Source: Patescibacteria group bacterium (GTDB lineage: Bacteria > Patescibacteriota > Patescibacteriia > UBA2591 > UBA4787). Taken from it: a DNA stretch of 26,955 bases. The notes beneath the pieces are model-generated. The model was not told where the DNA came from. It saw only the letters and a list, made by a program, of their open reading frames with translations, and did not search any database. A program made the position numbers and the translations under genes. Below, one piece after another: positions 2,848 through 26,876 of this stretch; the stretch's first letter is position 1, and every line of letters begins with the position of its first letter. Location of the stretch: NCBI GenBank assembly GCA_038063835.1, contig JBBTUI010000065.1:1-26955 (forward strand), read 5' to 3'.

Positions 2848-2861
2848 GAACTCTTAATATA

Positions 2862-5692: not shown

Positions 5693-5708
5693 TCCGCCAA
5701 TTGGCGGA
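5693..5708. repeat. REP-like palindrome TCCGCCAATTGGCGGA
   Basis: Perfect 16-bp palindrome in the secF/GT4 spacer; the family recurs across the window. Confidence 0.85.
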
Positions 5709-5733
5709 TAGAAATTAGAATTACTTCTACTTT

Positions 5734-6639
5734 CTATTTTCTGTTTAAACCCTTGCGATTAAATAAAAGGAAAGAAGCTGCGATGGAAATTGAAGAATAA
5801 GCGCCGGTTAAAACGCCGACAGCCATGGCAAAAGCAAAATCGCGCGTGCTGACGCCTCCGAAAAGCGCCACAGCCAAAATCGCAAAAATAGTGGTCAGGG
5901 TAGTGTTAAAAGTCCGCGCGATTGTTTCATTAAGACTTTTATTGACTACCTCCTCTAAGTCGCGGCCACCTTGCGCTAAAATATTTTCGCGAATACGATC
6001 GTAAACAACAATCGTATCATTAACCGAATAACCCAGTACGGTTAAAATAGCCGCAATAGCCAAACTATTGAATTCCATTTGGCGGAAATGACCCATAACG
6101 GCGTAAAAACCGACTATAATAATAATATCGTGAAATAAAGAAAATATAGCGCCGAAAGCATACCGCCACGATTCCCCTTGTTTTATAACTTTAGATAATT
6201 TTCTGAACGACCAAGCGACATAAAGCAAAATACAAAGCGTAGCTAGAATAACGCTCCAGCGGGCCTTGTTCGTCAATTCACGACCAATCATCGGCCCCAT
6301 AGAATGAAAAGAAATTTCTTCTAAGTCGCCGATCTCATTTAGGACGGTTAATATTTTTTGATGAGTTTCTTCGTCAACATCTTTAAAACGCATAACCGCG
6401 CCATTCTCTCCTGTCAATTGAACGCTCAAATTTTCCAGTTTTAAGTCTTTAAGTTTGTCAATAATTTGTTGGTTATTGTCAATTTTAACGGAAAGATAAC
6501 GCACCTCCATAATTGTACCGCCGGTAAAATCTATGCCGAATTTTAAGCCCCAAACAATCAAGGCTATTAAAGAAAATAAAATAACAACCGCGGAAATAGT
6601 TAAAAATATTTTTCGTTTTTGAATAATTTTATAAAACAT
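5734..6639 (-). CDS. secF: Protein translocase subunit SecF
   Basis: GLKFGIDFTGGT, GPMIGREL, HDIIII, GYSVNDTIVVYDRIREN, RTFNTTLTT; lies directly downstream of secD. Confidence 0.97.
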   Translation of the reverse strand: MFYKIIQKRKIFLTISAVVILFSLIALIVWGLKFGIDFTGGTIMEVRYLSVKIDNNQQIIDKLKDLKLENLSVQLTGENGAVMRFKDVDEETHQKILTVLNEIGDLEEISFHSMGPMIGRELTNKARWSVILATLCILLYVAWSFRKLSKVIKQGESWRYAFGAIFSLFHDIIIIVGFYAVMGHFRQMEFNSLAIAAILTVLGYSVNDTIVVYDRIRENILAQGGRDLEEVVNKSLNETIARTFNTTLTTIFAILAVALFGGVSTRDFAFAMAVGVLTGAYSSISIAASFLLFNRKGLNRK

Positions 6640-6644
6640 ATATT

Positions 6645-8279
6645 TTATTTGTTAAATAATTTTAATAAATTGCGGGTTACGGTAATTGCGGTGAACATAC
6701 TGAGAATAACGCCCAACCCCAGGGTTAGCCCGAAACCGCGGATTAAACCGGTGCCAAAATAATAAAGGATAAAACAAGTGATCAGAGTAGTAACATTGCC
6801 GTCGCGGATGGCGGTCCAGGCATGGCGGAAGCCATCGTTAATTGCTGTTCCGCCAAATTTGCCTAAACGCTTTTCGTCTTTAACGCGCTCAAAAATAAGC
6901 ACATTCGCGTCAACGGCCATGCCAAGCGAGATGATAAAACCCGCGATCGCGGATAAGGTTAAAGTAACTGGCAATAATTTATAAACAGCCATATTAATTA
7001 GAGCATAAATCAATAAAGCAATTGAGGCGATTAATCCATAAAAACCATAAAAAGTAATCATAAAAATCATCACCGCTAAAAGACCGATTATGCCGGCCAC
7101 AAAACTTTTATTAACTGAAAGACGGCCTAAACTGGGACCGATATTTTGTTGACTGACCAAATTAATAGCCACGGGCAAAGCGCCGGCGCTTAATCGTTGC
7201 GCCAATTCCTTCACCTCCTTGATATTAAAATTGCCGGTAATAACTGCTTTGCCGCCGGTAATAGTTTCGCGTACGGTTGGGACGCTAATTGGCACCCCGT
7301 CCAAAAAAATAGCCACTGGCTTGCCAATATTGCGCTGGGTGATCTCGCCAAACAACTTAGTTCCCTCTTCATTAAATTCCAAAGAGACTTCTGATTCATT
7401 GGTGTTCCCGCCAAAACTCACTTGGGCGCTTTTTAATTGCTTGCCGGTTAAGCCCGTATACTGCCACTGTGATTGCGGATTACTCAAATCAATTTCGAGC
7501 GATTGAGTTTCAATAAGAATATGGCTGGCCTTAATTTCTTCCTTTCCGTCGGCTGTTTTTCTTTCGTCAAATTTTTTAATAATATGATAGCCGAAAAAAC
7601 TTTCTACTAATTGTTTGGTGACTTCTCCCTTTTTTAAAGCAAAAGCCGCTTTTTCAAATTCCGGAATCATAGCGCCTTTGCCGAACCAACCAAGATCGCC
7701 GCCTTGATTTCCACTACCCTCATCCTCTGAATATTCCTTAGCCAAAGCGGAAAAATCAGCGCCGGACTTTAGGACTTTTTTAAGAATTTCACTAGCTTTC
7801 TGTTCGGCTTGTTGATTGTAATTTTCTCTGTCTTTTTTTTCTTGATCGCTTAATGGCTTGGACGAGGCCTGTTCTCTAAATTCCAAAATTGGCGTTTCGC
7901 CGATCATTTCAATGGCCTCTTTCACATTCCTAATACCAGGCAATTCAACCACCAACCTCCATTCATTTTCAGCTTTCACGGTATGGATAACCGGCTCGCT
8001 TACACCGAAAAAATTAACGCGGCGCTCAATTACATCGCGCGCGCCCTCAACTGCCGCCTCTCGCTGGTCTCCGGGAATATTAGTTGTATCTGTCTGATAA
8101 ATCAACTGTGTTCCGCCTTGCAAATCAAGACCTAAATGAATTTTTTGCTTAGTAAACCACTGACTAAGAGGTACCCAACTAGGCACTCTCGGAATGTTAA
8201 CCAATAAAGAAAAAATCGTTATCAAAATAATAACGATGAGTAATGTCCAATTTTTATTGCTTTGCGACATATAAAACAA
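6645..8279 (-). CDS. secD: Protein translocase subunit SecD with an inserted parvulin-type PPIase domain
   Basis: LGLDLQGGTQL, RRVNFFGVSEP, LSAGALP, IGPSLG, GMAVDANVLIFER, AIRDGNVTT. The insert reads FSALAKEYSED...GGDLGWF...PEFEKAAF...GYHIIK...ASHILI. Confidence 0.95.
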   Translation of the reverse strand: MFYMSQSNKNWTLLIVIILITIFSLLVNIPRVPSWVPLSQWFTKQKIHLGLDLQGGTQLIYQTDTTNIPGDQREAAVEGARDVIERRVNFFGVSEPVIHTVKAENEWRLVVELPGIRNVKEAIEMIGETPILEFREQASSKPLSDQEKKDRENYNQQAEQKASEILKKVLKSGADFSALAKEYSEDEGSGNQGGDLGWFGKGAMIPEFEKAAFALKKGEVTKQLVESFFGYHIIKKFDERKTADGKEEIKASHILIETQSLEIDLSNPQSQWQYTGLTGKQLKSAQVSFGGNTNESEVSLEFNEEGTKLFGEITQRNIGKPVAIFLDGVPISVPTVRETITGGKAVITGNFNIKEVKELAQRLSAGALPVAINLVSQQNIGPSLGRLSVNKSFVAGIIGLLAVMIFMITFYGFYGLIASIALLIYALINMAVYKLLPVTLTLSAIAGFIISLGMAVDANVLIFERVKDEKRLGKFGGTAINDGFRHAWTAIRDGNVTTLITCFILYYFGTGLIRGFGLTLGLGVILSMFTAITVTRNLLKLFNK

Positions 8280-8332
8280 AGTTTAAAATTATATTTATTA
8301 ATAATAGCACCGAACAATTAAAATGGCAAGAA

Positions 8333-9592
8333 TTAATCTTCAACTCTTTTTATTTCTGCTCCCAAACTGTTCAGGCGTTCCTCAATTTTTTCGTAACCCC
8401 GGTCAACGACTTCCGCCTGATTAATAATTGTTTCTCCTTGAGCGATCAAACCCGCGATAATCAAAGTAGCGCCGGCGCGCAAATCAAAGCTCCTGATTTC
8501 CTGGCCATAAAGCGGAGTGGGCCCATTGATAATAACGCGGTGCGGATCAGCCACAATCGCATTAGCCCCCATCTTAATTAATTCTTGAATATAACCCATG
8601 CGTCCCTCAAAAAGCGGGTCTTGAATCAATGTTGTTCCCTGACATTGTGTAGCCAAAATGCCGAAAGGCGCTTGCAGATCGGTTGGAAATCCCGGATAAG
8701 GCAAAGTCTGCAATCTGAATGATTTTAAATTTGAGGATGGCAGAAATTCAACGGCCTTATGGCGAACCTCAAATTTAATGCCGATTTGATTTAGCTTTAA
8801 CAAAATTATGTCCAGGTGTTCCGGCTCAATGCCTTTGAGAATAACATGTCCGCGCGTTAAAGACGAAGCAACGGCAAAAGTGCCGGCTTCGATCTGATCC
8901 GGAATAATATAATGCTCGGTTCCTTTTAATTTTGACACTCCTTCAATAATTAAAGTATGCGTTCCGACGCCGGATATTTTAGCTCCCATTTTATTTAAAA
9001 ATAAACATAAATCTTGGACATGGGGCTCGGCGGCGGCCAATTTAATTATCGTTTTGCCCTGGGCTAAAACCGCGGCCATTATTGTGTTTTCAGTTGCGGT
9101 AACTGAAAATTCTGGTAAAATAATAAGGTTGCCGATTAGTTTGTCCACTTTTATTTTATAAACCGCGTCTTCTTTAATAATTTTAGCGCCCAATTTTTCT
9201 AAAGCGTAAAAATGCGTGTCTAATGGACGATTGCCGATAATGCACCCGCCTGGTTCCGAGATTTCTACTGAACCAAAACGGCCTAAAAGCGGTCCCATAA
9301 AAAGGACTGATGAGCGCATTTTTTTGACTAATTTCTGATCAAGATTTTTTAAATCAACTTCTTTATTGCATATCTTCACGCAACCTTCAGAAACCTTTTC
9401 AATTTTACTGCCCAAACTTTTTAGAATATCAATCATCGCGGAAACATCTGATATCTGAGGCAAATTATCAACCAAGCAGGGTTCTTCGGTAAGCAGGGTA
9501 GCCGCCAAAATTGGAGTCGCCGCATTTTTCATCCCCTTAATTACAACTTCGCCGTTTAATTTTTTACCGCCCTGAATAATAAATTTAGACAT
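8333..9592 (-). CDS. murA: UDP-N-acetylglucosamine 1-carboxyvinyltransferase
   Basis: GMKNAATP, MRSSVLFMGPLLGR, PGGCIIGNRP (catalytic Cys present), PYPGFPTDLQ, DLRAGA, RGYE. Confidence 0.97.
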   Translation of the reverse strand: MSKFIIQGGKKLNGEVVIKGMKNAATPILAATLLTEEPCLVDNLPQISDVSAMIDILKSLGSKIEKVSEGCVKICNKEVDLKNLDQKLVKKMRSSVLFMGPLLGRFGSVEISEPGGCIIGNRPLDTHFYALEKLGAKIIKEDAVYKIKVDKLIGNLIILPEFSVTATENTIMAAVLAQGKTIIKLAAAEPHVQDLCLFLNKMGAKISGVGTHTLIIEGVSKLKGTEHYIIPDQIEAGTFAVASSLTRGHVILKGIEPEHLDIILLKLNQIGIKFEVRHKAVEFLPSSNLKSFRLQTLPYPGFPTDLQAPFGILATQCQGTTLIQDPLFEGRMGYIQELIKMGANAIVADPHRVIINGPTPLYGQEIRSFDLRAGATLIIAGLIAQGETIINQAEVVDRGYEKIEERLNSLGAEIKRVED

Positions 9593-9596
9593 ACGG

Positions 9597-9705
9597 GTTA
9601 GAATTATGAATTATGAATTTAGAATTACGAATTGAGAAGCAAAAATTGGTAATTGAAAATTGATTGAAAATTGAAAATTGGTAATTGAAAATTAAAAATT
9701 GACTT
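9597..9705. repeat. 7-nt-period tandem arrays (GAATTAT-type, then AAAATTG-type)
   Basis: gaattat gaattat gaattta gaattac gaattga, then aaaattg gtaattg aaaattg ... aaaattg aaaattg gtaattg aaaatta aaaattg, between the divergent murA and PEGA genes. Confidence 0.85.
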
Positions 9706-9729
9706 TTGAATTTTAATTTTTTATCTATC

Positions 9730-11184
9730 ATGCCGGAAAAACTAAGAAAATTAATTATCGGATCAGGGGTATTGGCTTTCCTTATTTTAACTCCTTTAAT
9801 TATTTTGTATAGCTACGGCTATCGCTATAGCCCCATTAGCCGGCGCTTTACGCAAACCGGCAATCTTCATCTAAATTCCGCGCCACCAGGAGCCGACGTG
9901 ATTATTAATGGCCGAACCATCAATGATCATTGGTATCAACGATTGTTATTTTATAAAAAAGCGCTGGGTTTAACAAAAATAGAAAGTAGTACGCCCACCT
10001 TGATCAGCCATCTCATCCCTAATATTTATAATGTCTCTGTAAATAAGTCTGGCTATCAAAATTGGCAGAAAAAATTAGAGGTCAAGGCCGGCCAAACGAC
10101 TTTCAGCAAAAAAATAAACCTCTTTTTGGAGCAGTCAATTTTAGAAAAAACAGAAATTCCCAACAATACAGCGTCGGAATTTAACCATCGCCAGACTAAA
10201 ATTATCGTCTCAGAAAAAACATATAAAGAAATTTATTTGATTGATGGTTTAAATTTAAAATCATCTGTTCGTCCACTAATGAAAAATAATTTAGCTGGCG
10301 AAGTCAAAAATAATTTGAGCGAAGATGGCGCCAAAATTTCAATAGTTGATCAATTCGGCAATATTATGATTGTTAACTTGGATAATCCGAATAAAGACTT
10401 TATTAAAATTCCGAACATATCCTTTGTTCGCCGAAACCGCTGGACCAACAACGGATTAAATTTGTATTTTGACAATAAAAAAATCGTTTACGATTATGAC
10501 CTTAACCAGCGATCTTTAAAAATCCTTTTTAATCCCCAATGGATCGGTTTCAAAAACTCGGAAATAAATGATTGGCTGATTGATAATAATTTTATTTATT
10601 TGATCGCCAAAAACCAAAAAGGCGTTAATTTCTACCAAATCAAAAAAGAGAGCGGATGGACGAACTACAAGACGGACGATATTATTAAAAAAATAAATCT
10701 GCCTGACGGCAAATATCAATTAGAAAATATTTTTTTAACTGACGGATTTATTTCCATTAAAGATAAGCTGGATAATTATTATTTTATCAATATAGAGATC
10801 GGCCAAACGCAAGAATTAACGAATAAATACTTTTGCCGAAAAATAATCAAATATAACGAAACTGCTATTTGTTTTAATGACTGGGAAATTATTGCCCTGG
10901 CTGTTGAGAAAGAGAATGATCAAAAAATTATAAAAAATGAAATAGTTTTACGCGAAAGCAATTTGATCAAAGACGTGGCTTGGTATGATAATGACTATAT
11001 TATTTACGCTAATTCCGACCGACTTATCGCCTTAGAGCTTGATAACCGCGACTATTATTATCGAACCGAGATTATAAAAGGCGTTTCCATCGAAGAAATA
11101 TTGGGAGTAGACCAAAATAAAAATTTATACTTCATGGAACGGCAAAATAACAAAAATTACTTAGTTAAAATTAAAATACAATAA
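9730..11184 (+). CDS. Membrane-anchored PEGA-domain protein with a probable beta-rich/propeller C-terminus
   Basis: N-terminal TM helix followed by YSYGYRY. PEGA-like GNLHLNSAPPGADVIING and YNVSVNKSGYQNWQKKLEVKAGQT. The ATG at 9730 was preferred over the TTG at 9706. Confidence 0.75.
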   Translation: MPEKLRKLIIGSGVLAFLILTPLIILYSYGYRYSPISRRFTQTGNLHLNSAPPGADVIINGRTINDHWYQRLLFYKKALGLTKIESSTPTLISHLIPNIYNVSVNKSGYQNWQKKLEVKAGQTTFSKKINLFLEQSILEKTEIPNNTASEFNHRQTKIIVSEKTYKEIYLIDGLNLKSSVRPLMKNNLAGEVKNNLSEDGAKISIVDQFGNIMIVNLDNPNKDFIKIPNISFVRRNRWTNNGLNLYFDNKKIVYDYDLNQRSLKILFNPQWIGFKNSEINDWLIDNNFIYLIAKNQKGVNFYQIKKESGWTNYKTDDIIKKINLPDGKYQLENIFLTDGFISIKDKLDNYYFINIEIGQTQELTNKYFCRKIIKYNETAICFNDWEIIALAVEKENDQKIIKNEIVLRESNLIKDVAWYDNDYIIYANSDRLIALELDNRDYYYRTEIIKGVSIEEILGVDQNKNLYFMERQNNKNYLVKIKIQ

Positions 11185-11297
11185 CCCCATTAGAGATTCA
11201 ACCGATGCTATCTTTTATAAAGAATATCTCGAGCGATAGCGCCTTACGGCTCACATCAGACTATCACCCCCGTTCAATTTTAAATCTCTAACGGGGT
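11184..11297. mobile_element. MITE-like element, family 1, copy a (114 bp)
   Basis: TIRs accccattagagatt / aatctctaacggggt (15 bp, 1 mismatch). The interior is homologous to 13188-13310. It begins on the last base of the PEGA stop codon. Confidence 0.7.
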
Positions 11298-11343
11298 GAA
11301 CCTCGCCAAATATATTCATTAAATAAAAAATAAAGATACTTTT

Positions 11344-11598
11344 ATGGAACTTGTCGGTTATATCGCCGGCTTTTTTAGCGCCGTTAGCTTGTTGCCGCAG
11401 ATTAGAAAGACCCTAATCACCAGAAACGTCAAAGGTCTTTCTTTGGGTATGATTTTGGCGTACCTAATGGCTGTTATTTTCTGGTCTTGGTATGGAATTT
11501 TGAAATCAAGCCCGCCGATTATTCTAACTCAAATATTGTTCGGCGCTTCAACTATTTTCCTTTTAATTTTAAGGCTAAAATATAAACGCAACGACTAA
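11344..11598 (+). CDS. SemiSWEET/PQ-loop family small transporter
   Basis: 84 aa with three hydrophobic helices and LLPQIRKT...VKGLSLGM...W..YG. Confidence 0.85.
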   Translation: MELVGYIAGFFSAVSLLPQIRKTLITRNVKGLSLGMILAYLMAVIFWSWYGILKSSPPIILTQILFGASTIFLLILRLKYKRND

Positions 11599-11624
11599 AT
11601 CTCTGCTGTTTTTCAGGACTATTT

Positions 11625-11656
11625 CAGGTCTGATCTGGTCAAACAGGTCAGGCCTG
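11625..11656 (+). terminator. Hairpin downstream of SemiSWEET, possible terminator
   Basis: caggtctgatctg / caggtcaggcctg forms a 13-bp stem with two G-U pairs on the plus strand and a 6-nt loop. The U-tract is weak. Confidence 0.4.
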
Positions 11657-11690
11657 TTCCATCTTGTTTATAATACCCCTTTTTTTGCTC

Positions 11691-11719
11691 TTGACAAAAA
11701 ACGATTTTTGTGCTTTAAT
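11691..11719 (+). promoter_or_regulatory. Sigma70-type promoter
   Basis: TTGACA, 17-nt spacer ending TGC, then TTTAAT. Confidence 0.7.
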
Positions 11720-11781
11720 AAATATAATTGAAACATAGGATCTTTAATGGATCTTTAACAAAAAACAAAAGGAGATCAACC

Positions 11782-12408
11782 ATGAAACGGACTCTGATTT
11801 CCCTGTTCGTGGCGATCGCGATTTCCGCCATACTGGCCAGCCCGGTTTTGGCTGAAAGGGCGCAACTCAACTACGGTCTGACTTTGCCCGAATCAACGCC
11901 CAACGAGAACCTCATGAAAGCCGCGGCAGTACGCGACGCCTACCTGACCAGCCAGGTGCCGGCCATTGACAAAGCGCTGAAGGAGATAACCGCGGACAAC
12001 GTGATCAGCACCCAGGACTGGAACAAAATCATACCCTTGATTGACAAATTCCAAAGCGATCGGAAAGAAGCCATTAAGATTTACGGCAACAGTCTGATCA
12101 CCGCGGAACTCAACCCCAACCTGGTCAAACTGAACAAGCTTTACTGCAAGCCCATCTTAAACGGCCGAGATCCCAAAGGCGAAATCAAGGCTTTATTGGC
12201 CATTATGACCGGCCAGGACATCAAACAAGTGGATCAGGGAAAAGACCCTATTAATATTTTGATGGCCTTACTAATAATAGTGGCAATATTCGTGGATTTT
12301 ATCGGAATTGGCCTCCTGCTCGGTGGAAATGACAGAAAATTCCGCATCGCTGGCCTCGTGCTGCTGGTAATAGGCGGCCTCGTGCTGTCGATCATCCTAA
12401 CAGTCTAA
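11782..12408 (+). CDS. Hypothetical exported protein with signal peptide and two C-terminal TM helices
   Basis: The true start is probably ATG 11782 (aaAAGGAGatcaaccATG). Signal peptide MKRTLISLFVAIAISAILASPVLA. Two hydrophobic C-terminal segments. GC-richer than its neighbours. Confidence 0.75.
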   Translation: MKRTLISLFVAIAISAILASPVLAERAQLNYGLTLPESTPNENLMKAAAVRDAYLTSQVPAIDKALKEITADNVISTQDWNKIIPLIDKFQSDRKEAIKIYGNSLITAELNPNLVKLNKLYCKPILNGRDPKGEIKALLAIMTGQDIKQVDQGKDPINILMALLIIVAIFVDFIGIGLLLGGNDRKFRIAGLVLLVIGGLVLSIILTV

Positions 12409-12422
12409 GCCATAAGCCAATC

Positions 12423-12457
12423 AACCCTGCTCGAAAAAAGAGCAGGGTTTTCTTTTT
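12423..12457 (+). terminator. Intrinsic terminator
   Basis: aaccctgctc / gagcagggtt 10-bp stem followed by ttcttttt. Confidence 0.85.
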
Positions 12458-12483
12458 GAATTTTAATTTCTTAACTCGTAATT

Positions 12484-12560
12484 CATGCTCCACGCTCCAT
12501 GCTCCACGCTCCAAGTTTCAAGTTTTGACTTCTACTTTCTATTTTCTAACCTCTACTACT
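12484..12560. repeat. 7-nt-period repeat mosaic
   Basis: catgctc cacgctc catgctc cacgctc caagtttcaag ... ttctact ttctatt ttctaac ctctact. Shares modules with 20038-20077. Confidence 0.75.
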
Positions 12561-12567
12561 TAGGAAA

Positions 12568-12705
12568 CCGGGCAGTGAAAATTCGATAGTGTTCTTTGTT
12601 TCGCTTCGCTAATTAATCTTTTAATATACCAAATAACTAACTTTTATTTTCAGTGCATCGCCCACATAATCACACCCTAAGAAGCATCGAATTTCTACTG
12701 CCCGG
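12568..12705. mobile_element. MITE-like element, family 2, copy A (138 bp)
   Basis: TIRs ccgggcagtgaaaattcgat / atcgaatttctactgcccgg (18/20 match). Homologous to the reverse complement of 25967-26117. Confidence 0.72.
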
Positions 12706-13165
12706 CGAACACCCAAAATTTATTGGAAATAAATCTGACAAATAAAATAATGATAGCGCAAAAAACCTTGGCCAATAAGTCATAGAAGTGGGCGTGGACA
12801 AGTAAAACAAAAAACCACTGATAAATCAGGGTGGTGACAATAACCATTATCCAGAATTTGATATATTGCCAAAATATTTTTTTGTCTTGGTTTTTAAAAA
12901 CTATTTTTTTGCTCCAAAGAAAAAAAATAGTGGCGCTTATAATCAAAGCGATAATATTAGCCCACTCGTAATACGCTTGCCAGAAATTAAAAAAGCGGGT
13001 CAAAAAAAAATAAACCGCAAAATCAAAAAGCGTGCAAATACTGCCCGCGATAAAATAATGTATCATCTGCCTGCCCAATTCCGTATGATAGAAATTTTTT
13101 ATTCTGTGTAGTGGTAAAAATTTAAAAATAGAATTTGGGGTTATAAATTTAGAATCTATAATCAA
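12695..13165 (-). CDS. GtrA family protein (putative lipid-linked sugar translocation)
   Basis: QMIHYFIAGSICTLFDFAVYFFL...F.WSKKIVFK...QYIKF...AKV...RFISNKFWVF; four TM helices. The start is uncertain. Confidence 0.8.
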   Translation of the reverse strand: MIIDSKFITPNSIFKFLPLHRIKNFYHTELGRQMIHYFIAGSICTLFDFAVYFFLTRFFNFWQAYYEWANIIALIISATIFFLWSKKIVFKNQDKKIFWQYIKFWIMVIVTTLIYQWFFVLLVHAHFYDLLAKVFCAIIILFVRFISNKFWVFAGQ

Positions 13166-13187
13166 CTAATTTGCCAATCTATTATTC

Positions 13188-13310
13188 ACCCCGTTAGAGA
13201 TTCAGCCAAAGTAATCTTTTTTAGATCCGCCAACTGGCGGACTCGAGCGAAACCGCCTCACGGCTTTTGATGGTCTATAAAACATGATCAATTTTAAATC
13301 TCTAACGGGG
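13188..13310. mobile_element. MITE-like element, family 1, copy b, containing a REP-like palindrome
   Basis: Perfect 14-bp TIR ccccgttagagatt / aatctctaacgggg. It shares atctttt, ctcgagcga, acggct and tcaattttaaatctctaacgggg with 11184-11297. Confidence 0.72.
13226..13241. repeat. REP-like palindrome TCCGCCAACTGGCGGA
   Basis: Read directly; nested within the family 1 element. Confidence 0.85.
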
Positions 13311-19447: not shown

Positions 19448-19454
19448 ACCAAGT

Positions 19455-19569
19455 TTAATTTAAAATTCAAAAATCAAAAATTAAAATGACAAATCAAAAT
19501 GTAAAATTATCAGTATTATTCGTTAAATTCCAAGCTCTAAATTCCATATTCTAAATTCCAAATTCTATT
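19455..19569. repeat. 7-nt-period tandem arrays
   Basis: aaaattc aaaaatc aaaaatt aaaatga...; tctaaat tccatat tctaaat tccaaat tcta. Confidence 0.7.
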
Positions 19570-19920
19570 CTATTTTATTAATTGATAAACCGCGTAAGGC
19601 AAAATAGCAAGCCAAGCGAAAAATAATACCAACAATATTGCCGCGCCAATTATAAATAATATTAAATAAACCACTAATTGCAGAACGCGCATAAAAAAAC
19701 TGATGATTCTTCCGCTAAACGAATATTGACCGAACATTGGCTTAAACATATTTGCCAATAACAAACGGAGCGCCAAAGAGCGCGCTAATTTATAAACATT
19801 ATCGCGCAAAGAAAATGCGGCATTTTTTAAACCTTTCGTATACCACCAAATCGGAAAATACAAAATTTCTAAAAGCGGGTTGATGATAGTAAATTTTACG
19901 AAAGACGCGAATGAATACAT
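19570..19920 (-). CDS. Hypothetical membrane protein upstream of the Clp ATPase
   Basis: 116 aa, hydrophobic, with YFPIWWYTKG and FKPMFGQY; same orientation as its neighbours. Confidence 0.75.
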   Translation of the reverse strand: MYSFASFVKFTIINPLLEILYFPIWWYTKGLKNAAFSLRDNVYKLARSLALRLLLANMFKPMFGQYSFSGRIISFFMRVLQLVVYLILFIIGAAILLVLFFAWLAILPYAVYQLIK

Positions 19921-19924
19921 GAAA

Positions 19925-20077
19925 AATTGAATTATGAATTATGAATTATGATATTGAAACTTGTAGCTTCGTGCTTTACGCTCCACGTTTTGCGCTTTGC
20001 GCTCTCCGCCCAAGGCGGATCCGCCTCTGGCGGACAAGCTCCATGTTCCAAGTTTCAAGATTCTATTTTCTACTTTA
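19925..20077. repeat. Composite repeat mosaic with tandem REP-like palindromes
   Basis: gaattat x3 and tttgcgc x2, then tccgcccaaggcgga (20005-20019) abutting tccgcctctggcgga (20020-20034), then ccaagtttcaag and ttctattttctact. Confidence 0.8.
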
Positions 20078-20106
20078 CCAATTTTGTTTAATTTTCACAA
20101 TGTATA

Positions 20107-20859
20107 TCAAGAAGATGGTTTTACGCTCTTGTCTCCGCTATGCAACTTCTTAAAGCTTAACTTTTGTTGAACAATGGTTAAAACTAGGCCGATTAACCAG
20201 TATAACATCAAACCGCTAGGCAAACCCAAGCCGATAAAAACCGTTAAAATGGGCATCATAAAAATCATTTGCTTGTTCATAATCGCCATTACGGTTTCAT
20301 CTTTAGCGCCTTCTTTTTTGGCGATATTCGGAAGAGGCTGTATAGTTGTCAGCATTTTTCCCTGCCAATATTGAAGAAGCCCGGTAATCAATGTTAAAAT
20401 TAGATTGGGTTTTGATAAATCTAAAACTCCAAAAGAAAGAACATTCAAAACGCCGGGATTATGGATAAAGCTGTAAAGATCAATAGCTAAATTTTTAGAA
20501 ATAAGGCCGTTACGGAAAACCTGATAAACCGCCAATAAAATTGGCAGTTGAATCAGTAATAAAAAAATGGAAGAAAAAGGATTAACTTTATTTTCTTTAT
20601 AGATAGCCATAGTCGCCTGAGCTAATTTGGACGGGTCTTTCTTGTATTTTTCCTTTAGAGCGCTAATTTTTGGTTGAATAGCTTGCATCGCTTTTTGCGA
20701 TCTTAAAGCTTTTTCTGATAATGGCCAGAGAACGAGGCGGATTACCAAGGTTAACAATAAAATCGCCAGACCCAAATCAGCGAACGGAAAAATATTATAA
20801 AAAAAGACCAGCAAATTAAGCAGCGGGCGATAAAGTACTTCGTTAAAAAGATGGATCAT
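20107..20859 (-). CDS. yidC: Membrane protein insertase YidC/Oxa1 (short form)
   Basis: LGLAILLLTLVIRLVLWPL, MQAIQPKI..LKEKYK, YKENKVNPF, LLIQLPIL, LPSGLMLYW. Confidence 0.95.
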   Translation of the reverse strand: MIHLFNEVLYRPLLNLLVFFYNIFPFADLGLAILLLTLVIRLVLWPLSEKALRSQKAMQAIQPKISALKEKYKKDPSKLAQATMAIYKENKVNPFSSIFLLLIQLPILLAVYQVFRNGLISKNLAIDLYSFIHNPGVLNVLSFGVLDLSKPNLILTLITGLLQYWQGKMLTTIQPLPNIAKKEGAKDETVMAIMNKQMIFMMPILTVFIGLGLPSGLMLYWLIGLVLTIVQQKLSFKKLHSGDKSVKPSS

Positions 20860-20861
20860 AT

Positions 20862-20905
20862 AATTAGAATTATGAATTTAGAATATAGAATTTAGAATTT
20901 AGAAG
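20862..20905. repeat. 7-nt-period tandem array upstream of yidC
   Basis: gaattat gaattta gaatata gaattta gaattta gaagc. Confidence 0.8.
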
Positions 20906-20922
20906 CTTGCCTGCCCCTCCGA

Positions 20923-20940
20923 ATCCGCCAGCTGGCGGAT
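20923..20940. repeat. REP-like palindrome ATCCGCCAGCTGGCGGAT
   Basis: Perfect 18-bp palindrome. Confidence 0.88.
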
Positions 20941-20987
20941 CGGAAATGAAAATAAAATTTTCATTTCTCTCGCTCGCTTGATAATAA
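20940..20987 (-). repeat. Hairpin element, copy 2 (overlaps the rnpA 3' end)
   Basis: tcg-gaaatgaaaat-aaa-attttcatttc-tctcgctcgcttgataataa; same frame as 2801-2847 with a different stem core. Confidence 0.8.
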
Positions 20988-21320
20988 ATTCATTTTTTTA
21001 AAAGCCTTATAAATTGATTCTTTTAATTCCAAAAATTTAATGGATTTTATCGGCTGACGAGCAATAAAAACAAAATCATAACCGGTAGAAATATCACTCA
21101 CTAAGCCGCGAACAATTTCCCTCATAATTCTTTTAAGATAGTTTCGGCGCGGGGCTAATTTAGAGATTCTTTTGGAAACGACAAAACCGAAACGGGAGAA
21201 AGGTTCGTCTCCTCTTTTAAAACTTCTGATGACTAAAAATGGCAAAACCAAAGACCGGCCGAACTGGGCTACCTTAGCAAAATCGCGTTCTTTGGTCAAC
21301 CGATTAATCTTAGAAAGCAT
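20961..21320 (-). CDS. rnpA: Ribonuclease P protein component
   Basis: MLSKINRLTKERDF, RFGFVVSKRISKLAPRRNYLKRIMRE, GYDFVFIAR; position between rpmH and yidC. Confidence 0.95.
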   Translation of the reverse strand: MLSKINRLTKERDFAKVAQFGRSLVLPFLVIRSFKRGDEPFSRFGFVVSKRISKLAPRRNYLKRIMREIVRGLVSDISTGYDFVFIARQPIKSIKFLELKESIYKAFKKMNLLSSEREK

Positions 21321-21330
21321 GAGGGAAAAG

Positions 21331-21468
21331 CTAAGCGGTTAATTTCTTTCTCTTTTTGGCGCGGCGCCTAGACAAAACCTGGCGACCACTCTTCGTGAGC
21401 ATTCTTTTTAAAAATCCGTGGGTGCGCGCTCTTTTCCTTTTTTTAGGCTGATAAGTTCTTTTTGGCAT
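21331..21468 (-). CDS. rpmH: 50S ribosomal protein L34
   Basis: Not in the ORF track. Manual translation gives [45 protein letters not shown] (45 aa). Confidence 0.97.
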
Positions 21469-21484
21469 AATATTTTTCTTACTA

Positions 21485-22279
21485 TTAAATTAATATTTCT
21501 TCATCGCAACGCGTAATCTTCTTAGATAAATGACTTTTGTCGTCTATTTCGATTAAAACCGCGTTGATAGTCGTTTGTCCTTCTTGGGGTGAAATTAAGG
21601 GTTCTGGAATTTGCGTTAAATACGAGCGAATAATGCCTTCTTTGGCGGCGCCAATAACTGAATCGCTGGCACCGACCATCCCGATATCGGTAACATAGGC
21701 AGTGCCTTTGGGTAAAATTTTATTGTCGGCGGTGGGTATGTGCGTATGAGTGCCAACCACCGCGGAAACTCTTCCGTCTAGCCAATAACCAAAAGCCACT
21801 TTTTCCGAAGTTGCTTCGGCGTGAAAATCGATAATAATAATATTTTTCTTTAGACTAGCTTTGGTCTTTTTTAAAACCTCTTCGACCTTGCGAAAAGGAC
21901 AATCAAGGGTGGGTCTTAAAAAAACTCTGCCCAAAAGATTGATTAATAAAATATTCTGTTTGTCTTTTTTTATAATCACATAACCTTGACCCGGAGTATC
22001 TTCCGGATAATTCGCCGGCCTGATAACTGGCATTTTTTTATTAATCACCTCTATCACATCTTTTCTGGCAAAAAAATGATTTCCGTTGGTCAAATAATCA
22101 ACACCGGCGTCTAAAACTTCTTTAACGGTTTTGGGCGTCATGCCTTTTAAATGAGCTAAATTTTCGCCATTAGCTAAAATCAAATCCGGTTTATACCGTT
22201 TTTTATATTGCGGTATAGCTTTTTTAATGGCCTGGCGTCCCAGACCGCCCATAATATCCCCGAAAAATAATATTTTCAT
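21485..22279 (-). CDS. ymdB: YmdB-like (TIGR00282) metallophosphoesterase
   Basis: [40 protein letters not shown]; lies downstream of rny. Confidence 0.93.
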
Positions 22280-22307
22280 TGTCTTGAAATTTGAAACTTA
22301 ATATTTA

Positions 22308-22316
22308 ATTATAGCA
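22308..22316 (-). promoter_or_regulatory. Extended -10 promoter (TGcTATAAT) upstream of ymdB
   Basis: The minus strand reads tttgTGcTATAATtaaatatt; there is no good -35. Confidence 0.55.
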
Positions 22317-22324
22317 CAAAATAA

Positions 22325-23842
22325 TTATCTGGCGAACTCAATAATTCTGTTTTCTCTGATAACAGTGACTTTAATTTCTCCCGGATATTTAAGTTCCGCT
22401 TCAATGCGATCAGCGATCTGACGAGCCAGCTTGGCCGCTTCTAAATCGTTTATTTCCTGCGGCACCACAAAGACCCTTAATTCGCGGCCGGCCTGAATAG
22501 CGTAAACTTTTTCCACGCCGGCAAAACTTTTGGCCACACCCTCAAGATCTTCCAATCTCTTAATAAAATCTTCGTAATTGTCTTTTCTGGCGCCCAAACG
22601 CGAAGCTGACAAGGCATCAGCTACTTTGACAATTACCGCTTCCAGTGTCGGCGGGTGATCTTCGTGATGAGTCGCGATAGGAATAATTATTTTCTCCGGG
22701 AAACCAAATTTTTTCATCAAGTCTTGCCCGATAGCGGGATGAGTTCCTTCTACCTCATGATCAACCGCTTTTCCGATATCATGGAAAAATCCAGCTTTTT
22801 TGGCCACAAATTCGTCGGCGCCCAATTCGGTGGCTAAAATTTCCGAAAGATTAGCCACTTCGATTGAATGCTGTAAAACATTTTGGCCGTAACTTGTCCG
22901 ATATTTTAAACGGCCAATTAAAGTGACAAGCTTCGGGTCAAGGCCGGTGATGCCTACCTGATAGGCGGCGTCTTCTCCGGCAGAACGAATATCTTGCACT
23001 AACTCTTTTTTGGCATCTTCTACTACTTTCTCTATGCGCGCCGGTTGAATGCGCCCGTCCAAAATTAATTTTTCTAAGACCATTTTTGCCAATTGGCGAC
23101 GGATTGGATTAAAGCCGGAAATGAAAATAGCGCCGGGCGTATCATCAACTATTATTTCCACGCCTGTTAATTGCTCTATGGCCTTAATATTCCGACCTTC
23201 GCGGCCGATGATCCGACCCTTTAAGTCATCAGAAGAAATATTAACCGTGCTCGTCGTTCTTTCAGTGGCATGAGAAGTGGCAATTCTTTCCATAGCTAAA
23301 CTCATTACTTCGCGCGCCTTTTTCTCATACAAATCGCTTCCCGCCCGTTCTACTTTTTTCAAGCGCTCTAAAATTACTTCTTGATTGTCTTTCTCTATTT
23401 TTTCTAAAAGAAAATTAATGGCCTCTTCTTCGGTCATTCCTGAAATCTCTTCTAATTTAGCGATGGCCTCTTCGTGTAATTCCCTAATTCTTGATTTTAT
23501 TTCTTCTAATTTAGAAGCTTTTTCGCTTAATTGCTGTTGTTTTTCTTCTAATTCCAGTAATTTCTTGTCAAATAAACTTTCTCTTTTTTCTAAACGATCG
23601 GTCAAGGCCCTAAGTTCTTTCCTTCGGCTGATTTCTTCGCGTTTGGCTTCATCAATAACTTTCATCGCCTCTTCGCGCGCGTTGAACAACAATTCTTGTT
23701 GTTTATTTTTCGCGCTTTTAATAATTTCTTCTACTTGCGCTTCGGCGGTCGCGGCTTTTTTTAGGGCGACTAAACGCCTAATCCAATAACCCAATCCCAT
23801 GCCAAGGATTAAACCGCCGATTGTCAAAATAATATTCTGCAT
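22325..23842 (-). CDS. rny: Ribonuclease Y
   Basis: N-terminal TM helix, coiled coil, KH domain (KGRIIGREGRNI), HD domain (HSIEVA...FHDIGK), and C-terminal YAIQAGRELRV. Confidence 0.97.
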   Translation of the reverse strand: MQNIILTIGGLILGMGLGYWIRRLVALKKAATAEAQVEEIIKSAKNKQQELLFNAREEAMKVIDEAKREEISRRKELRALTDRLEKRESLFDKKLLELEEKQQQLSEKASKLEEIKSRIRELHEEAIAKLEEISGMTEEEAINFLLEKIEKDNQEVILERLKKVERAGSDLYEKKAREVMSLAMERIATSHATERTTSTVNISSDDLKGRIIGREGRNIKAIEQLTGVEIIVDDTPGAIFISGFNPIRRQLAKMVLEKLILDGRIQPARIEKVVEDAKKELVQDIRSAGEDAAYQVGITGLDPKLVTLIGRLKYRTSYGQNVLQHSIEVANLSEILATELGADEFVAKKAGFFHDIGKAVDHEVEGTHPAIGQDLMKKFGFPEKIIIPIATHHEDHPPTLEAVIVKVADALSASRLGARKDNYEDFIKRLEDLEGVAKSFAGVEKVYAIQAGRELRVFVVPQEINDLEAAKLARQIADRIEAELKYPGEIKVTVIRENRIIEFAR

Positions 23843-23926
23843 ATCTTCAATTTTATTTAATTAATTTTTTAACAAAAACTGACCGATTTTCTCGGCTTTT
23901 GAAAAAAGAATCTTGTGCGGTAAAAA

Positions 23927-24505
23927 TTATTTGTGGATAATTTTGTCGACGATGCCGTAACGCTTGGCTTCTTCGGCGGACATAAAGAAATCGCGATCCG
24001 TGTCTTTTTCTATCTTTGTTAAAGGTTGATCCGTGTGTTTAGCCAAAATTTTATTAATTTGATCGCGCACTTTAAGAATATGCTCGGCTCTAATTTTAAT
24101 GTCTGTCGCCTGTCCTTCAAATCCGCCCATCACCTGATGAATCATAATCTCAGCATTCGGCAGAGCCAATCGTTTGCCTTTAGCGCCGGCGCTTAATAAA
24201 ACCGCGCCCATTGAAGCGGCCGTGCCAACGCAAATAGTCATAACATCCGGCTTGATGTATTGCATGGTATCATAAATCGCCATTCCGGCCGTCACTGAAC
24301 CACCCGGGGTGTTAACATAAAGCTTGATGTCGCGGCTCTTGTCCTCGCTTTCCAGAAATAAAAACTGCGCGATTACCGTATTAGCGATCGCATCGTCGAT
24401 CATGTCTCCTAAAAAAATAATTCTTTCTTTCAAAAGACGAGAATAAATATCATAAGCTCGTTCTCCGTGAGTTGATTTTTCAATTACTGTTGGAACGAGA
24501 TACAT
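23927..24505 (-). CDS. clpP: ATP-dependent Clp protease proteolytic subunit
   Basis: [31 protein letters not shown] (Ser), IMIHQ (His), DRDFFMS (Asp). Confidence 0.98.
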
Positions 24506-24551
24506 AATAACTATGCTTTATTAAACTTTATTAAATTAATTAGATTAAGAT

Positions 24552-24580
24552 ATTGTAGAACATCCAAGGGGGGTTGTCAA
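24552..24580 (-). promoter_or_regulatory. Sigma70 promoter for clpP
   Basis: TTGACA (24575-24580, overlapping the murC stop), 17-nt spacer, TACAAT (24552-24557). Confidence 0.75.
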
Positions 24581-25965
24581 ATGTTTTGCCGTGGCGCCGC
24601 TTGTATTTTATCGGCGATTTCGTAAATATCGCCCGCGCCCATTATTAAAACCACGTCTCCGAAATGCTGATTTTTCTTATAAAGATTCAAGCTATCTTCT
24701 GGCGAACTGACATAAAATACCTGATTTTGTCCGTTCTTTCTAACCGCTTCCGCCAAGTCTTGCGAGCCTATATTCTGATCTTCTGAATTTTCTCTTCCTG
24801 CCACATCATAAATTTCCGCCAAAATGATTAGATCCGCTAGGGCAAAGCTTCGGCTAAAATCTTTAAATAAATTTTTAGTTCGATTATGCTGGTGAGGCTG
24901 GAAAATTACCACCAAACGACGATTGGGGAAAAAACCTTTAGCGGCTTTAATGGTTTCTCTGATGGCCGTGGGGTGGTGCGCGTAATCAGATACAACAGTA
25001 AGCGCGCGATCGTTTTTAATAATCTCAAATCTGCGCCAAATTCCTCCAAAGTTTTTTAATGTTTTTTGCATAACTTCGAAATTAATATCAAATTTCAAAG
25101 ACAAAGCAATAGCGGCCAGGGCGTTATAAATATTAAATTCGCCCGGCGCCGCTAATTCTATTTTCCCTAAATTTTCATTTTTGAAAAATAAATCAAAGCG
25201 CGTTAAGCCGATTAAAAATTCTATATTCTTAGCCATAACGTCTGCGTTATTTTTAATGCCGTAAGTAATAACGCGGCATTTTGGTTTTAATTTGGCTATA
25301 TTTTGATCATCAGTATTTAAAATTAAAAGGTCGTCGGACGGCAACTTGTCTATATACGCTTGAAAAGTGTTAATAATATGATTTGAGTCGCGATAGTAGT
25401 CTAAATGATCCGCTTCGATATTAGTTAAAACAATTACCTTCGGGAAAAGATTAAGCATGTGCGCTCGCCACTCGCAAGCTTCAACAACAAAATAATTTGA
25501 ACTTCCCAAACGAAAATTTCCTTGCCACTCTTTAACGCGGCTGCCCACGATTACCGTCGGGTCCAGATTCGCGGCTTCTAATATCAAACCAGCCAAAGCC
25601 GTGGTTGTGCTTTTGCCGTTAGTGCCGGATATGGCGATAGTAAAATAATCTTTAGAAATTTCTCCTAAAAATTCATTATAAGATAGTTCTCTGATGCCTA
25701 AAGTTTTGGCGGCTATCCTCTCCGGATTATCAACTGGCGCGGCCGAAGAATAAATAACCAAATCCAAGTCATTAAAAATATTTTCTTTCTTGTGTCCGAA
25801 AAATATTTTTATGCCCAAATTTTCCAGTTCTTGAGTAATTATGGAACTAGTTAAATCTGAACCGCTGACCTCGGTTCCTAATTTATCAAGCCAACGCGCA
25901 ACAGCAGAAACGCCGATGCCGCCGATGCCAATAATATGAACTTTTTTTAATTTATCTATGTCCAT
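24577..25965 (-). CDS. murC: UDP-N-acetylmuramate--L-alanine ligase
   Basis: HIIGIGGIGVS, GTNGKSTT, VEACE, NIEADHLDYY, RRFE, DYAHHPT, FQPHQ. Confidence 0.95.
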   Translation of the reverse strand: MDIDKLKKVHIIGIGGIGVSAVARWLDKLGTEVSGSDLTSSIITQELENLGIKIFFGHKKENIFNDLDLVIYSSAAPVDNPERIAAKTLGIRELSYNEFLGEISKDYFTIAISGTNGKSTTTALAGLILEAANLDPTVIVGSRVKEWQGNFRLGSSNYFVVEACEWRAHMLNLFPKVIVLTNIEADHLDYYRDSNHIINTFQAYIDKLPSDDLLILNTDDQNIAKLKPKCRVITYGIKNNADVMAKNIEFLIGLTRFDLFFKNENLGKIELAAPGEFNIYNALAAIALSLKFDINFEVMQKTLKNFGGIWRRFEIIKNDRALTVVSDYAHHPTAIRETIKAAKGFFPNRRLVVIFQPHQHNRTKNLFKDFSRSFALADLIILAEIYDVAGRENSEDQNIGSQDLAEAVRKNGQNQVFYVSSPEDSLNLYKKNQHFGDVVLIMGAGDIYEIADKIQAAPRQNI

Positions 25966-25966
25966 C

Positions 25967-26117
25967 CCAGGTAGTAGAAATTCGATGCTCCGCCAGTTGG
26001 CGGATTAAGGTGCGGTTATTAAGAAATGCGCTGAGAGCAAAAAATTGGTTATTTTATTAATATTGAGACCAAATAGCAAGCCAAAGAGAAAAGCACTATC
26101 GAATTTTCACTACCTGG
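25967..26117. mobile_element. MITE-like element, family 2, copy B (151 bp), containing a REP-like palindrome
   Basis: TIRs ccaggtagtagaaattcgat / atcgaattttcactacctgg. The reverse complement aligns end-to-end with 12568-12705, plus a palindrome insertion at 25989-26004. Confidence 0.72.
25989..26004. repeat. REP-like palindrome TCCGCCAGTTGGCGGA
   Basis: Its reverse complement is identical to the copy at 13226-13241. Confidence 0.85.
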
Positions 26118-26167
26118 CATAGTTTAAATCTATCATAAATTTATAATCTGCGCTAATTCTAAAAACT

Positions 26168-26198
26168 AAAAATAAAAGCTGGCGATATGCCAGCCTTT
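26168..26198 (-). terminator. Intrinsic terminator
   Basis: gctggc-N5-gccagc stem followed on the minus strand by ttttattttt. Confidence 0.65.
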
Positions 26199-26230
26199 AT
26201 CTATATATTGGTGAAATGTTTTTATTATTT

Positions 26231-26728
26231 TTACAAGGCAATGTCTGTGCCTTGCGATTCATTGTTCGTTTCTGTAACGCCGCAACTCTTGCGATCTGTC
26301 TTAAATTGCCGCCAAACAGCTTTAATCTCGCCGACATAAACCTTTTGAGCTCCCAATTTAGCCGCGCGAAAAGCTTTCCAAGCCGCTAATCTAGCCGCGA
26401 GTCTTTCCTTAATTGTGGTTTTATCCCATGCTTCTTTCAAAGCGGTTTTCCTGGTTGTTAAAGCGGTTTTAATAGCCGCGGTCTTTTTATCATAAGCAGC
26501 AATAACCGCCGACTCTCTTTTTTCAACAGCGCTCTTAACGCAGGCTATGTCCAGCTGTGGCTTATTGGCCGAAAGTGTTCCTATGCCCATGCGCGCTTTT
26601 AGTACTTTCTTAATTCCTACGCCGGGATTTTGCAGAGCATTGGGAGTGGTGGTTTGGGCAATTACTACTTGCGCCACGGTTAAAACCAAAACCGCGGACA
26701 GAACAATAACGAAAATTTTCTTTTTCAT
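26231..26728 (-). CDS. Hypothetical secreted, basic, alpha-helical protein
   Basis: Signal peptide MKKKIFVIVLSAVLVLTVAQVVIA, Ala/Lys-rich helical body, two Cys. Confidence 0.75.
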   Translation of the reverse strand: MKKKIFVIVLSAVLVLTVAQVVIAQTTTPNALQNPGVGIKKVLKARMGIGTLSANKPQLDIACVKSAVEKRESAVIAAYDKKTAAIKTALTTRKTALKEAWDKTTIKERLAARLAAWKAFRAAKLGAQKVYVGEIKAVWRQFKTDRKSCGVTETNNESQGTDIAL

Positions 26729-26860
26729 GTGTTCTAATTATTAAATTAAATCTTTTTATAATATTGACTCATTATAATAATACAAAAAATTATGAACTTT
26801 GTCTACGTCTATACTTCCCATCGCGCCCTCGTTTTCATCGCCACCGAATCGGTCGGGGAA

Positions 26861-26876
26861 TCTGCCGATTGGCGGA
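26861..26876. repeat. Degenerate REP-like palindrome TCTGCCGATTGGCGGA
   Basis: 14/16 match to the 5693 copy. Confidence 0.55.

Follow-up and report, generated by a model that had tools for sequence, protein, structure and literature searches.

A 15/16-nt GC-rich palindrome gained and lost in a Patescibacteria genome: a candidate non-autonomous insertion element

We describe a short GC-rich palindrome, TCCGCC-N3/4-GGCGGA (below, P; 15 or 16 nt, with a 6-bp stem and a free loop of 3-4 nt), found in a 26,955-nt stretch of DNA (the window), contig JBBTUI010000065.1 of a groundwater Patescibacteria genome (assembly GCA_038063835.1). Sites with a new copy of P are empty in close relatives; the copies overwrite target bases and leave no duplication, and they land in unique DNA, in the loops or arms of hairpins formed by other repeats, and within essential proteins, where the reading frame is kept. 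The element is characterized by high turnover, nesting, filtering by reading frame, upkeep of stem symmetry and independence from the transposases associated with repetitive extragenic palindromic (REP) elements, the RAYTs. The explanation that we favor, at a probability of about 0.5, is that P is a non-autonomous insertion element, belonging to a cross-phylum family of 15/16-nt GC-rich hairpin cassettes, often arranged in abutting pairs, that spread by templated copying.

Data and comparisons

The source genome (644 kb in 105 contigs, 38.6% GC, 97% complete; contigs are denoted by C with a number, the window being C65) was compared with a whole genome of the same genus (G001, below the congener; 765 kb in 4 contigs, 32 copies of P), and orthologous sites were found by mapping the flanks of every P. 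Background was estimated from dinucleotide-preserving shuffles of the window (n=100) and, for genomes, from counts of the reversed motif. The placement of P in genes was determined by crude calling of open reading frames (ORFs) followed by Pfam confirmation, and paralogs in the window were compared in MAFFT alignments.

Abundance and structure of the palindrome

All six exact copies and the degenerate one listed in a preliminary description of the window were recovered at the same positions (Table 1), while 100 shuffled sequences contained no match; genome-wide there are 91 exact copies and none of the reversed motif. The palindrome exceeds the background at both scales. The perfect palindrome TCCGCCAGCTGGCGGA is the consensus and accounts for 53 of the 91 copies, the others varying in the loop, and in 75 copies the stem is limited to 6 bp without extension. 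Moreover, the genome contains 27 one-mismatch copies and 19 copies with compensatory two-mismatch changes (TGCGCC/GGCGCA, TCAGCC/GGCTGA, CCCGCC/GGCGGG, TTCGCC/GGCGAA), the latter number being far above chance. Paired copies are 15+15-nt units that abut without a spacer, and most 16-mers are single. The outermost 150 nt of contigs, comprising 4.9% of the genome, contain eight of the 91 copies, and therefore the count of 91 is a lower bound.

Approximately 75% of the copies in the source genome are extragenic, and those between genes are mostly located between co-directional ones (39, with 8 between divergent and 3 between convergent genes). In the window all seven copies, including the degenerate one, lie between ORFs, so the initial remark that all copies are intergenic is correct there, but it does not extend to the genome, where 32 of the 91 copies fall in crude ORFs, about 22 of these being in Pfam-confirmed genes or close to their termini. 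No known RNA families were found in the window. The role of an intrinsic terminator was considered and rejected, as a T-rich 3' flank (six or more T among the 9 downstream nt) accompanies only 2 of the 91 copies, less than the background of 6.9%.

Gain and loss at orthologous sites

Among the P sites of the source genome, 59 could be mapped in the congener, where 3 have an exact copy, 13 a degenerate copy and 43 are empty; reciprocally, 18 sites of the congener were mappable in the source genome, with 3 exact, 4 degenerate and 11 empty. This supports the proposal, made from the window alone, of an independent palindromic module that is actively gained or lost. The window copy at 5693 is one of only three exactly shared sites, with TCCGCCGGCTGGCGGA as its counterpart in the congener. 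The double hairpin at 20005 is absent from its orthologous site, as is the P-bearing Family 2 element described below, and the P-bearing Family 1 element is absent as a whole. The 30-mer forming the double hairpin recurs at C51:4734, C52:5652 (inside tsaD) and C63:2187, and in reversed form at C55:4529.

Neither target-site duplications nor direct repeats were observed at 12 clean junctions; instead, 0-15 nt of the target are overwritten. Thus, P replaces caat in folD, ttct in ftsK, aaa at another site, GCTCGC in a repeat considered below, and 8-nt stretches in two pseudo-tRNA-Lys copies, while the inserts of 30 and 39 nt in a pilM-like gene and pheS are clean. Insertion sometimes brings a variable donor flank on one side, such as ...tccgaa preceding P in the pheS insert, common to window position 20911. 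A candidate target motif, Purine-CAG, was not seen at the 12 clean empty sites. Old copies degenerate through point mutation (der) or slippage of a 15-nt unit (queA and C33:1425; losses of such units are seen at C33:1425 and C86:544), with stem complementarity being kept.

The tRNA-like DNA with P (C3:457, C87:7400-7860) consists of pseudo-tRNA copies. At C87:7400-7860, an intact tRNA-Lys(UUU) is situated between two pseudo-copies in which P replaces gcagtagc and atcagggt, and the congener has a single tRNA only. In a duplicate of the tRNA-Pro 3' end (C3:440-520), a clean 30-nt double hairpin is inserted in the T loop. The possibility that P is a tRNA intron was rejected, since removal of all P-type hairpins yielded no new tRNA (36 before and 36 after).

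Nesting in other repeats

The preliminary description pointed to three pairs of window paralogs with and without the palindrome, and all three were reproduced in the alignments. In Family 1, elements with terminal inverted repeats (TIRs), the P-less paralog has ATAAAGAATAT where the P-bearing copy has TTAGA followed by P; in Family 2, GA/GAA of the P-less paralog corresponds to P in the other copy. The third family is a hairpin transposable element of the miniature inverted-repeat type (MITE), with a length of approximately 92 nt (aaagggtattaaccctgtgttatc-YGC-GCTCGC-tcggaaa-hairpin-...cttgataataa), where the window copy of P sits at the place of GCTCGC of the P-less copies, the left half aligning more loosely.

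In the source genome, 10 of the 27 copies of the hairpin MITE carry P, which always exactly replaces the hexamer GCTCGC, versus 0 of 22 copies in the congener. All P-less copies have the same GCTCGC-type hexamer, and in the orthologous MITE pairs C45:1589 and C26:5798 P is the sole difference. Taken together, these observations support nesting and active gain, in agreement with the nested repeat hierarchy suggested initially. The P-bearing copies are spread over different MITE sublineages, and therefore P entered copies that were already present, the simplest route being conversion of short patches between homologous flanks. Overwriting is also seen at a second site of this MITE (C37, C101).

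More generally, both flanks are repeated elsewhere in the genome for 32 of the 91 copies, one flank for 28, and neither for 31, and modules are shuffled around P, as in bacterial interspersed mosaic elements (BIMEs). The notion that the palindrome favors other repeats is consistent with the 60 copies having at least one recurring flank, but one third of the copies reside in unique sequence, including essential genes, and hence there is no simple preference for repeats. When the definition of a MITE was applied to P itself, the whole element turned out to be the inverted repeat, there was no target-site duplication, and no parent insertion sequence was found.

Palindromes inside genes

The genes with P encode LeuRS, PheS, IleRS (twice), TsaD, FtsK, Der, methionine aminopeptidase (MAP), FolD, QueA, FemAB, a glycosyltransferase, an HD protein and a PilM-like protein. 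The 15-mers are translated as Ser-Ala-x-Gly-Gly (SAxGG) in 12 of 13 cases (p about 2e-5 compared with one frame in three), and the 16-mers are read in all three frames (SASWR, PPAGG, IRQLAD); the peptides encoded by the 15-30 nt of P in the different frames are SAxGG, PPAGG or IRQLAD. The sequence of P can form no stop codon in any frame, including the junction codons (NNT, NTC, ANN, GAN). The insertions in ORFs add 3-19 codons, and the net changes in length are all multiples of three (+12, +39, +30, -15, +15, +27, +57, +9, +12, +9, 0, -15, +6), whereas none of those between genes is (+7, +11, +13, +10, -55, +11, -25, +10). This pattern speaks for translation of the in-gene copies and for purging of insertions that break the frame.

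The polarity is clear in the case of TsaD, which has 427 amino acids in the source genome, 395 in the congener and 375 in two further congeners; across the congeners the protein grows from 375 to 395 to 427 amino acids. The insert is missing at that exact site in outgroups, and TsaD proteins from ten other lineages of the candidate phyla radiation (CPR) contain, in three variable loops, SAxGG or PPxGG peptides of their own. A peptide predicted to span an insert junction in TsaD is ...SSKLSAQGGSASGGQVSR..., and the AlphaFold model of TsaD (predicted local distance difference test score 87.9) is confident except for residues 132-162 and 235-249, which are the hairpin-coded inserts. In essential proteins, P is accommodated in frame within surface loops.

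A 36-nt palindromic element (tcatcgagtctgaggactcttcagagtctgaacga), encoding GRSDSEESSDSMSG, is part of the reading frames of IleRS and an HD-domain protein (C71:915-950 and C48:985-1020); in the HD-domain protein it lies within the loop of a P hairpin (C71:900).

Distribution across genomes and phyla

Within the order, 33 of 41 genomes have P (copy numbers 0-106); within the phylum, it is present in 75 of 121 (copy numbers 0-75). Beyond the phylum, multiple copies of the exact 16-mer occur as well, with 47 in a Paludibacter metagenome-assembled genome (MAG), 27 in the isolate Mucilaginibacter flavidus RT5R15, 16 and 7 in two Cyclobacteriaceae MAGs, and 91 in an Elusimicrobia MAG, all reversed controls being 0. 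The P-bearing repeats of Bacteroidota have conserved flanks, and in M. flavidus P is preceded by GTAG and followed by CTAC, as in tagged REPs. In a Cyclobacteriaceae MAG (L158:4274-4680), the identical 16-mer TCCGCCAGCTGGCGGA replaces two helices of class A RNase P RNA, P3 and P12, which are formed by the two local copies. A literature search found no published account of this 16-mer, or of REP, RAYT or MITE repeats in CPR bacteria. The palindrome had been thought possibly undescribed in this lineage; we likewise found no paper on it, but the lineage is too narrow a scope, as P spans the phylum and other phyla.

RAYT and GIY-YIG genes

The initially suggested link to REP elements and RAYTs was not borne out. 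The sole Y1_Tnp gene of the source genome (C15:1391-2080; RAYT-like, 229 amino acids, HxH and Y motifs) has on either side not P but tandem acaggtcagacctgt palindromes, which form a separate small REP-like family. Y1 genes had no match in the congener, despite its 32 copies of P, nor in three further genomes (G063, G069, G108), the four having 28-32 copies each, and in other phyla, five P-rich genomes with 12 Y1 loci had no P within 1.5 kb of these loci. The ends of P in the source genome have no GTAG or CGTC tag: the census of flanking tetranucleotides is topped by CGGA, CCGA and TGAA, and GTAG/CTAC are not enriched. Among 120 genomes of the phylum, P load correlates with Y1 at rho 0.27, but only at partial rho 0.04 when GIY-YIG matches are controlled for. 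RAYT as the mobilizer of P was rejected on these grounds.

The correlation of P load with the number of GIY-YIG matches is stronger, with rho 0.54 for 41 relatives and rho 0.56 (p 3.5e-11) for the 120 genomes of the phylum, both statistics ignoring phylogeny; in the latter set the partial rho, controlling for Y1, is 0.50. The source genome has seven small (about 85 amino acids) GIY-YIG nuclease genes, of which three have cccYgttaaat...atttaacaggg on their two sides, another has the Family 2 TIR (ccaggtagtgaaaattcgatag...atcgaatttctactacctgg), and one has gccccgctaaat...atttagcgggg. The TIRs of the small GIY-YIG genes are those of the window elements of Family 1 and Family 2, and from this similarity the miniature elements in the window (11184-11297, 13188-13310, 25967-26117) seem to be derived from TIR elements with GIY-YIG genes by loss of the ORF. 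The GIY-YIG element of C52 is absent from the congener.

Mechanism and alternative explanations

We suggest that P spreads by replication- or repair-associated templated copying, either copy-choice (template switching) or gap repair, from existing copies. A nascent strand would switch to an existing copy of P and copy through the palindrome, and folding of the hairpin would release the strand, which would then re-anneal a few bases downstream. The multi-copy GIY-YIG nucleases, the number of whose genes tracks P load, could trigger the process by making breaks; among copies of one MITE, P would subsequently spread by homologous conversion, and no RAYT would be needed.

Several observations weigh against this scheme. 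The copying mechanism is inferred, since no intermediate, donor-recipient pair or enzyme activity was observed, and no consistent microhomology or target motif is present across the 12 clean empty sites. That the stem stays identical across phyla is difficult to explain unless a sequence-specific factor acts on it or horizontal transfer is frequent. As the small GIY-YIG genes share TIRs with Family 1 and Family 2, the GIY-YIG correlation may only reflect hitch-hiking of P on the related MITEs; two genomes with P (G020, 55 copies, and G044, 21 copies; both less than 90% complete) have no GIY-YIG match, and none of the GIY-YIG genes in the source genome is within 500 nt of P.

The identity of the stem sequence across phyla makes a serious rival of a dedicated enzyme that mobilizes P in trans by acting on single-stranded hairpins (HUH Y1/RAYT-like, GIY-YIG or another protein), P then being a REP-type miniature transposon. 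The constancy of the stem in the order, the phylum and other phyla with freely varying loops, the compensatory stem variants, the covariation of P load with GIY-YIG gene number and the GTAG/CTAC next to P in M. flavidus, resembling tagged REPs (PMC3733652), all agree with it. Still, we regard it as unlikely given the Y1 data above, namely the foreign repeats around the only Y1 gene of the source genome, four P-rich genomes with no Y1 match, 12 Y1 loci with no P nearby, the vanishing partial correlation and the lack of a tag in the source genome; moreover, the variable loss of target bases and the variable donor flank differ from the precise insertion of the IS200/IS605 type. Even less probable is that P is not selfish DNA but a motif selected for a host function, such as a binding site, an RNA hairpin serving as an mRNA 3' stabilizer, terminator or processing site, or a signal of the DNA-uptake type. 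Patescibacteria are thought to depend on DNA uptake, and the stem is kept more strongly than the loop, with compensatory changes; the predominance of intergenic copies between co-directional genes and the persistence of P throughout the phylum also fit a function. However, the congeners have conserved only 3 of 59 sites, P arises by insertion rather than by point substitution, it interrupts essential proteins in disordered loops, related genomes that are complete have anywhere from 0 to 106 copies, and T-rich 3' flanks are rare (2 of 91 versus 7%).

That P is ancestral and fixed in each larger repeat, so that the P-less copies are sporadic deletions, is very improbable. Palindromes are prone to deletion, the 15-nt unit losses at C33:1425 and C86:544 are of this kind, and the P-bearing repeats of Bacteroidota have conserved flanks. 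On the other hand, the hairpin MITE lacks P in all 22 copies of the congener and in 17 of 27 copies of the source genome, the latter all with the GCTCGC-type hexamer; the insert is missing from conserved proteins in three congeners and in outgroups; and 31 of the 91 copies have no repeated flank. Both the alignments and the congener thus point to gain, in contrast to the ancestral state that the preliminary description had named as its possible refutation. An artifact of metagenome assembly, whether an adaptor or a chimera, would agree with the fragmentation of the MAG and with the 8 copies within 150 nt of contig ends, but it is hardly credible, as reading frames are always kept, decayed and compensated copies exist, P is present in genomes from many studies, including the isolate M. 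flavidus RT5R15, and the sequence was found in no paper or primer.

Relation to known systems

P is a kind of palindromic insertion element, whose closest described systems are tagged REPs, Rickettsia palindromic elements (RPEs), and the GC clusters and double-hairpin elements of fungal mitochondria. REP elements are high-copy, mostly extragenic imperfect palindromes of 20-40 bp associated with RAYT (Y1 HUH) transposases (PMC3116915, PMC2817692, PMC3733652); tagged REPs have an unpaired GTAG or CGTC at one end, some are intragenic, and the CGTC class has no dedicated transposase (Di Nocera et al., PMC3733652). As in the case of REP, BIME and REPIN elements, P is a high-copy GC-rich hairpin, mostly extragenic, often located between co-directional genes, forming mosaics with other motifs and occasionally intragenic. 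Unlike REP, it is a perfect palindrome of 15-16 nt with no GTAG/CGTC tag, overwrites target bases, does not flank the RAYT-like gene of its own genome, is present in the congener with no Y1, and has the same sequence across phyla. Moreover, REPIN doublets consist of two inverted REPs and a spacer, whereas P pairs abut without one.

RPEs are genus-restricted, about 100-150 bp long and encode a conserved peptide (PMC10969869, PMC3733652). P has the hallmark of RPEs as well, being inserted in frame into unrelated protein-coding genes without loss of the ORF: both are palindromic selfish DNA that resides in the housekeeping genes of reduced genomes, is translated, and is tolerated by the protein fold. 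P differs in being ten times shorter and cross-phylum, and it adds 3-19 codons. The mitochondrial GC clusters and double-hairpin elements measure 30-80 nt, with putative AG/TAG target duplications (PMC4478555; Paquin et al. 2000 cited there), and the mechanism of GC cluster mobility is unsolved, free-standing or intron endonucleases being suspected (PMC4478555). They share with P the GC-rich hairpins in a small AT-rich genome, the rapid turnover between close relatives, the merger, nesting and shuffling, the double-hairpin form, and the presence in intergenic DNA, structural RNAs and coding genes; P, however, is bacterial rather than organellar, is only 15-16 nt long, produces no duplication, and the target bases are lost.

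P also differs from the short uptake sequences (DUS/USS) of naturally competent bacteria in that it arises by insertion with a change in length of +7 to +57 nt relative to empty alleles, conserves only 3 of 59 sites and has a high turnover. The DUS/USS of Neisseriaceae and Pasteurellaceae are short, highly over-represented and clade-shared, occur in genes and in inverted pairs, arise by substitution, and have conserved positions.

If P is an insertion element, it represents a class an order of magnitude smaller than MITEs or RPEs, shared across phyla, that acts on genomes considered streamlined and remodels their intergenic DNA, other repeats, structural RNAs and essential proteins; a part of the unexplained insertions typical of CPR proteins and much of the assembly fragmentation of such MAGs would be accounted for. 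The isolate M. flavidus, with its 27 copies, would then be a tractable bacterial model for the 40-year-old problem of mitochondrial GC-cluster mobility, and the covariation with free-standing GIY-YIG nuclease genes would provide a concrete candidate enzyme. A bolder and more doubtful view is that, among the self-propagating DNA elements known in cells, P is the smallest, a 'structure-only' 15/16-nt replicator with no transposase of its own, which would hijack replication or repair at hairpins, overwrite RNase P RNA helices, tRNA-like sequences and protein loops, cross phyla, and continually add small flexible loops to essential proteins of ultra-small bacteria.

Other features of the window and the genome

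The window genes are bacterial housekeeping ones (SecDF, MurA-like, MurC, YidC, RnpA, RNase Y, ClpP). The features with coordinates are given in Table 1.

Table 1. Palindromes, P-less reference elements and other repeats in the window, and small GIY-YIG loci of the source genome
Feature	Location	Strand	Context or basis
P copy TCCGCCAATTGGCGGA	5693..5708	.	between secF and glycosyltransferase gene
P copy TCCGCCAACTGGCGGA	13226..13241	.	nested in Family 1 TIR element (13188-13310)
Abutting double hairpin, TCCGCCCAAGGCGGA + TCCGCCTCTGGCGGA	20005..20034	.	motif search; exact copies at 20005 and 20020
P copy TCCGCCAGCTGGCGGA	20924..20939	.	in truncated ~92-nt hairpin MITE, between yidC and rnpA
P copy TCCGCCAGTTGGCGGA	25989..26004	.	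nested in Family 2 TIR element (25967-26117), upstream of murC
Degenerate P TCTGCCGATTGGCGGA	26861..26876	.	one stem mismatch; among the 27 one-mismatch copies in the genome
P-less Family 1 element	11184..11297	+	'empty' reference paralog; alignment
P-less Family 2 element	12575..12700	+	'empty' reference paralog (approximate limits); alignment
P-less hairpin MITE copy with ancestral tgcGCTCGCtcgg	2750..2850	+	alignment
Period-7 array	9601-9702		window
Period-7 array	19457-19567		window
Period-7 array	19928-19951		window
Period-7 array	20864-20904		window
Small GIY-YIG locus	C52:4640-4940		source genome
Small GIY-YIG locus	C50:2424-2675		source genome
Small GIY-YIG locus	C32:2131-2382		source genome
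Small GIY-YIG locus	C75:600-845		source genome
Small GIY-YIG locus	C37:4856-5074		source genome

The 23S rRNA gene was not found in the assembly of the source genome. Only the 5' half of its 16S rRNA is assembled (C89:22-961), and this part is about 150 nt longer than the Rfam model over positions 9-546.

The intergenic DNA of the source genome is dominated by AT-rich tandem arrays with period 7 (TAGAATT, GAAAATT, TTCTACT, GCTCCAC and others), which yield 252 of 832 Tandem Repeats Finder hits; beside in-gene hairpins the heptamers are translated as KIEN/KFKI-type peptides. The possibility that these arrays are a part of P was rejected: arrays are common everywhere and only 44 of 482 are within 60 nt of P, and therefore P lands in arrays but does not make them.

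A second hairpin family, CCCGAC-N3-9-GTCGGG, has 25 copies in the source genome (reversed control 0) and 13 in the congener, and it occurs in frame in tsaD and tsaE (C52:5349-5420, 6411-6540). It also forms the stems of two RNase P RNA helices in the source genome (C59:14099-14150), while in the congener the same two helices have unrelated stems of equal length, with a nearly identical loop at one of them.

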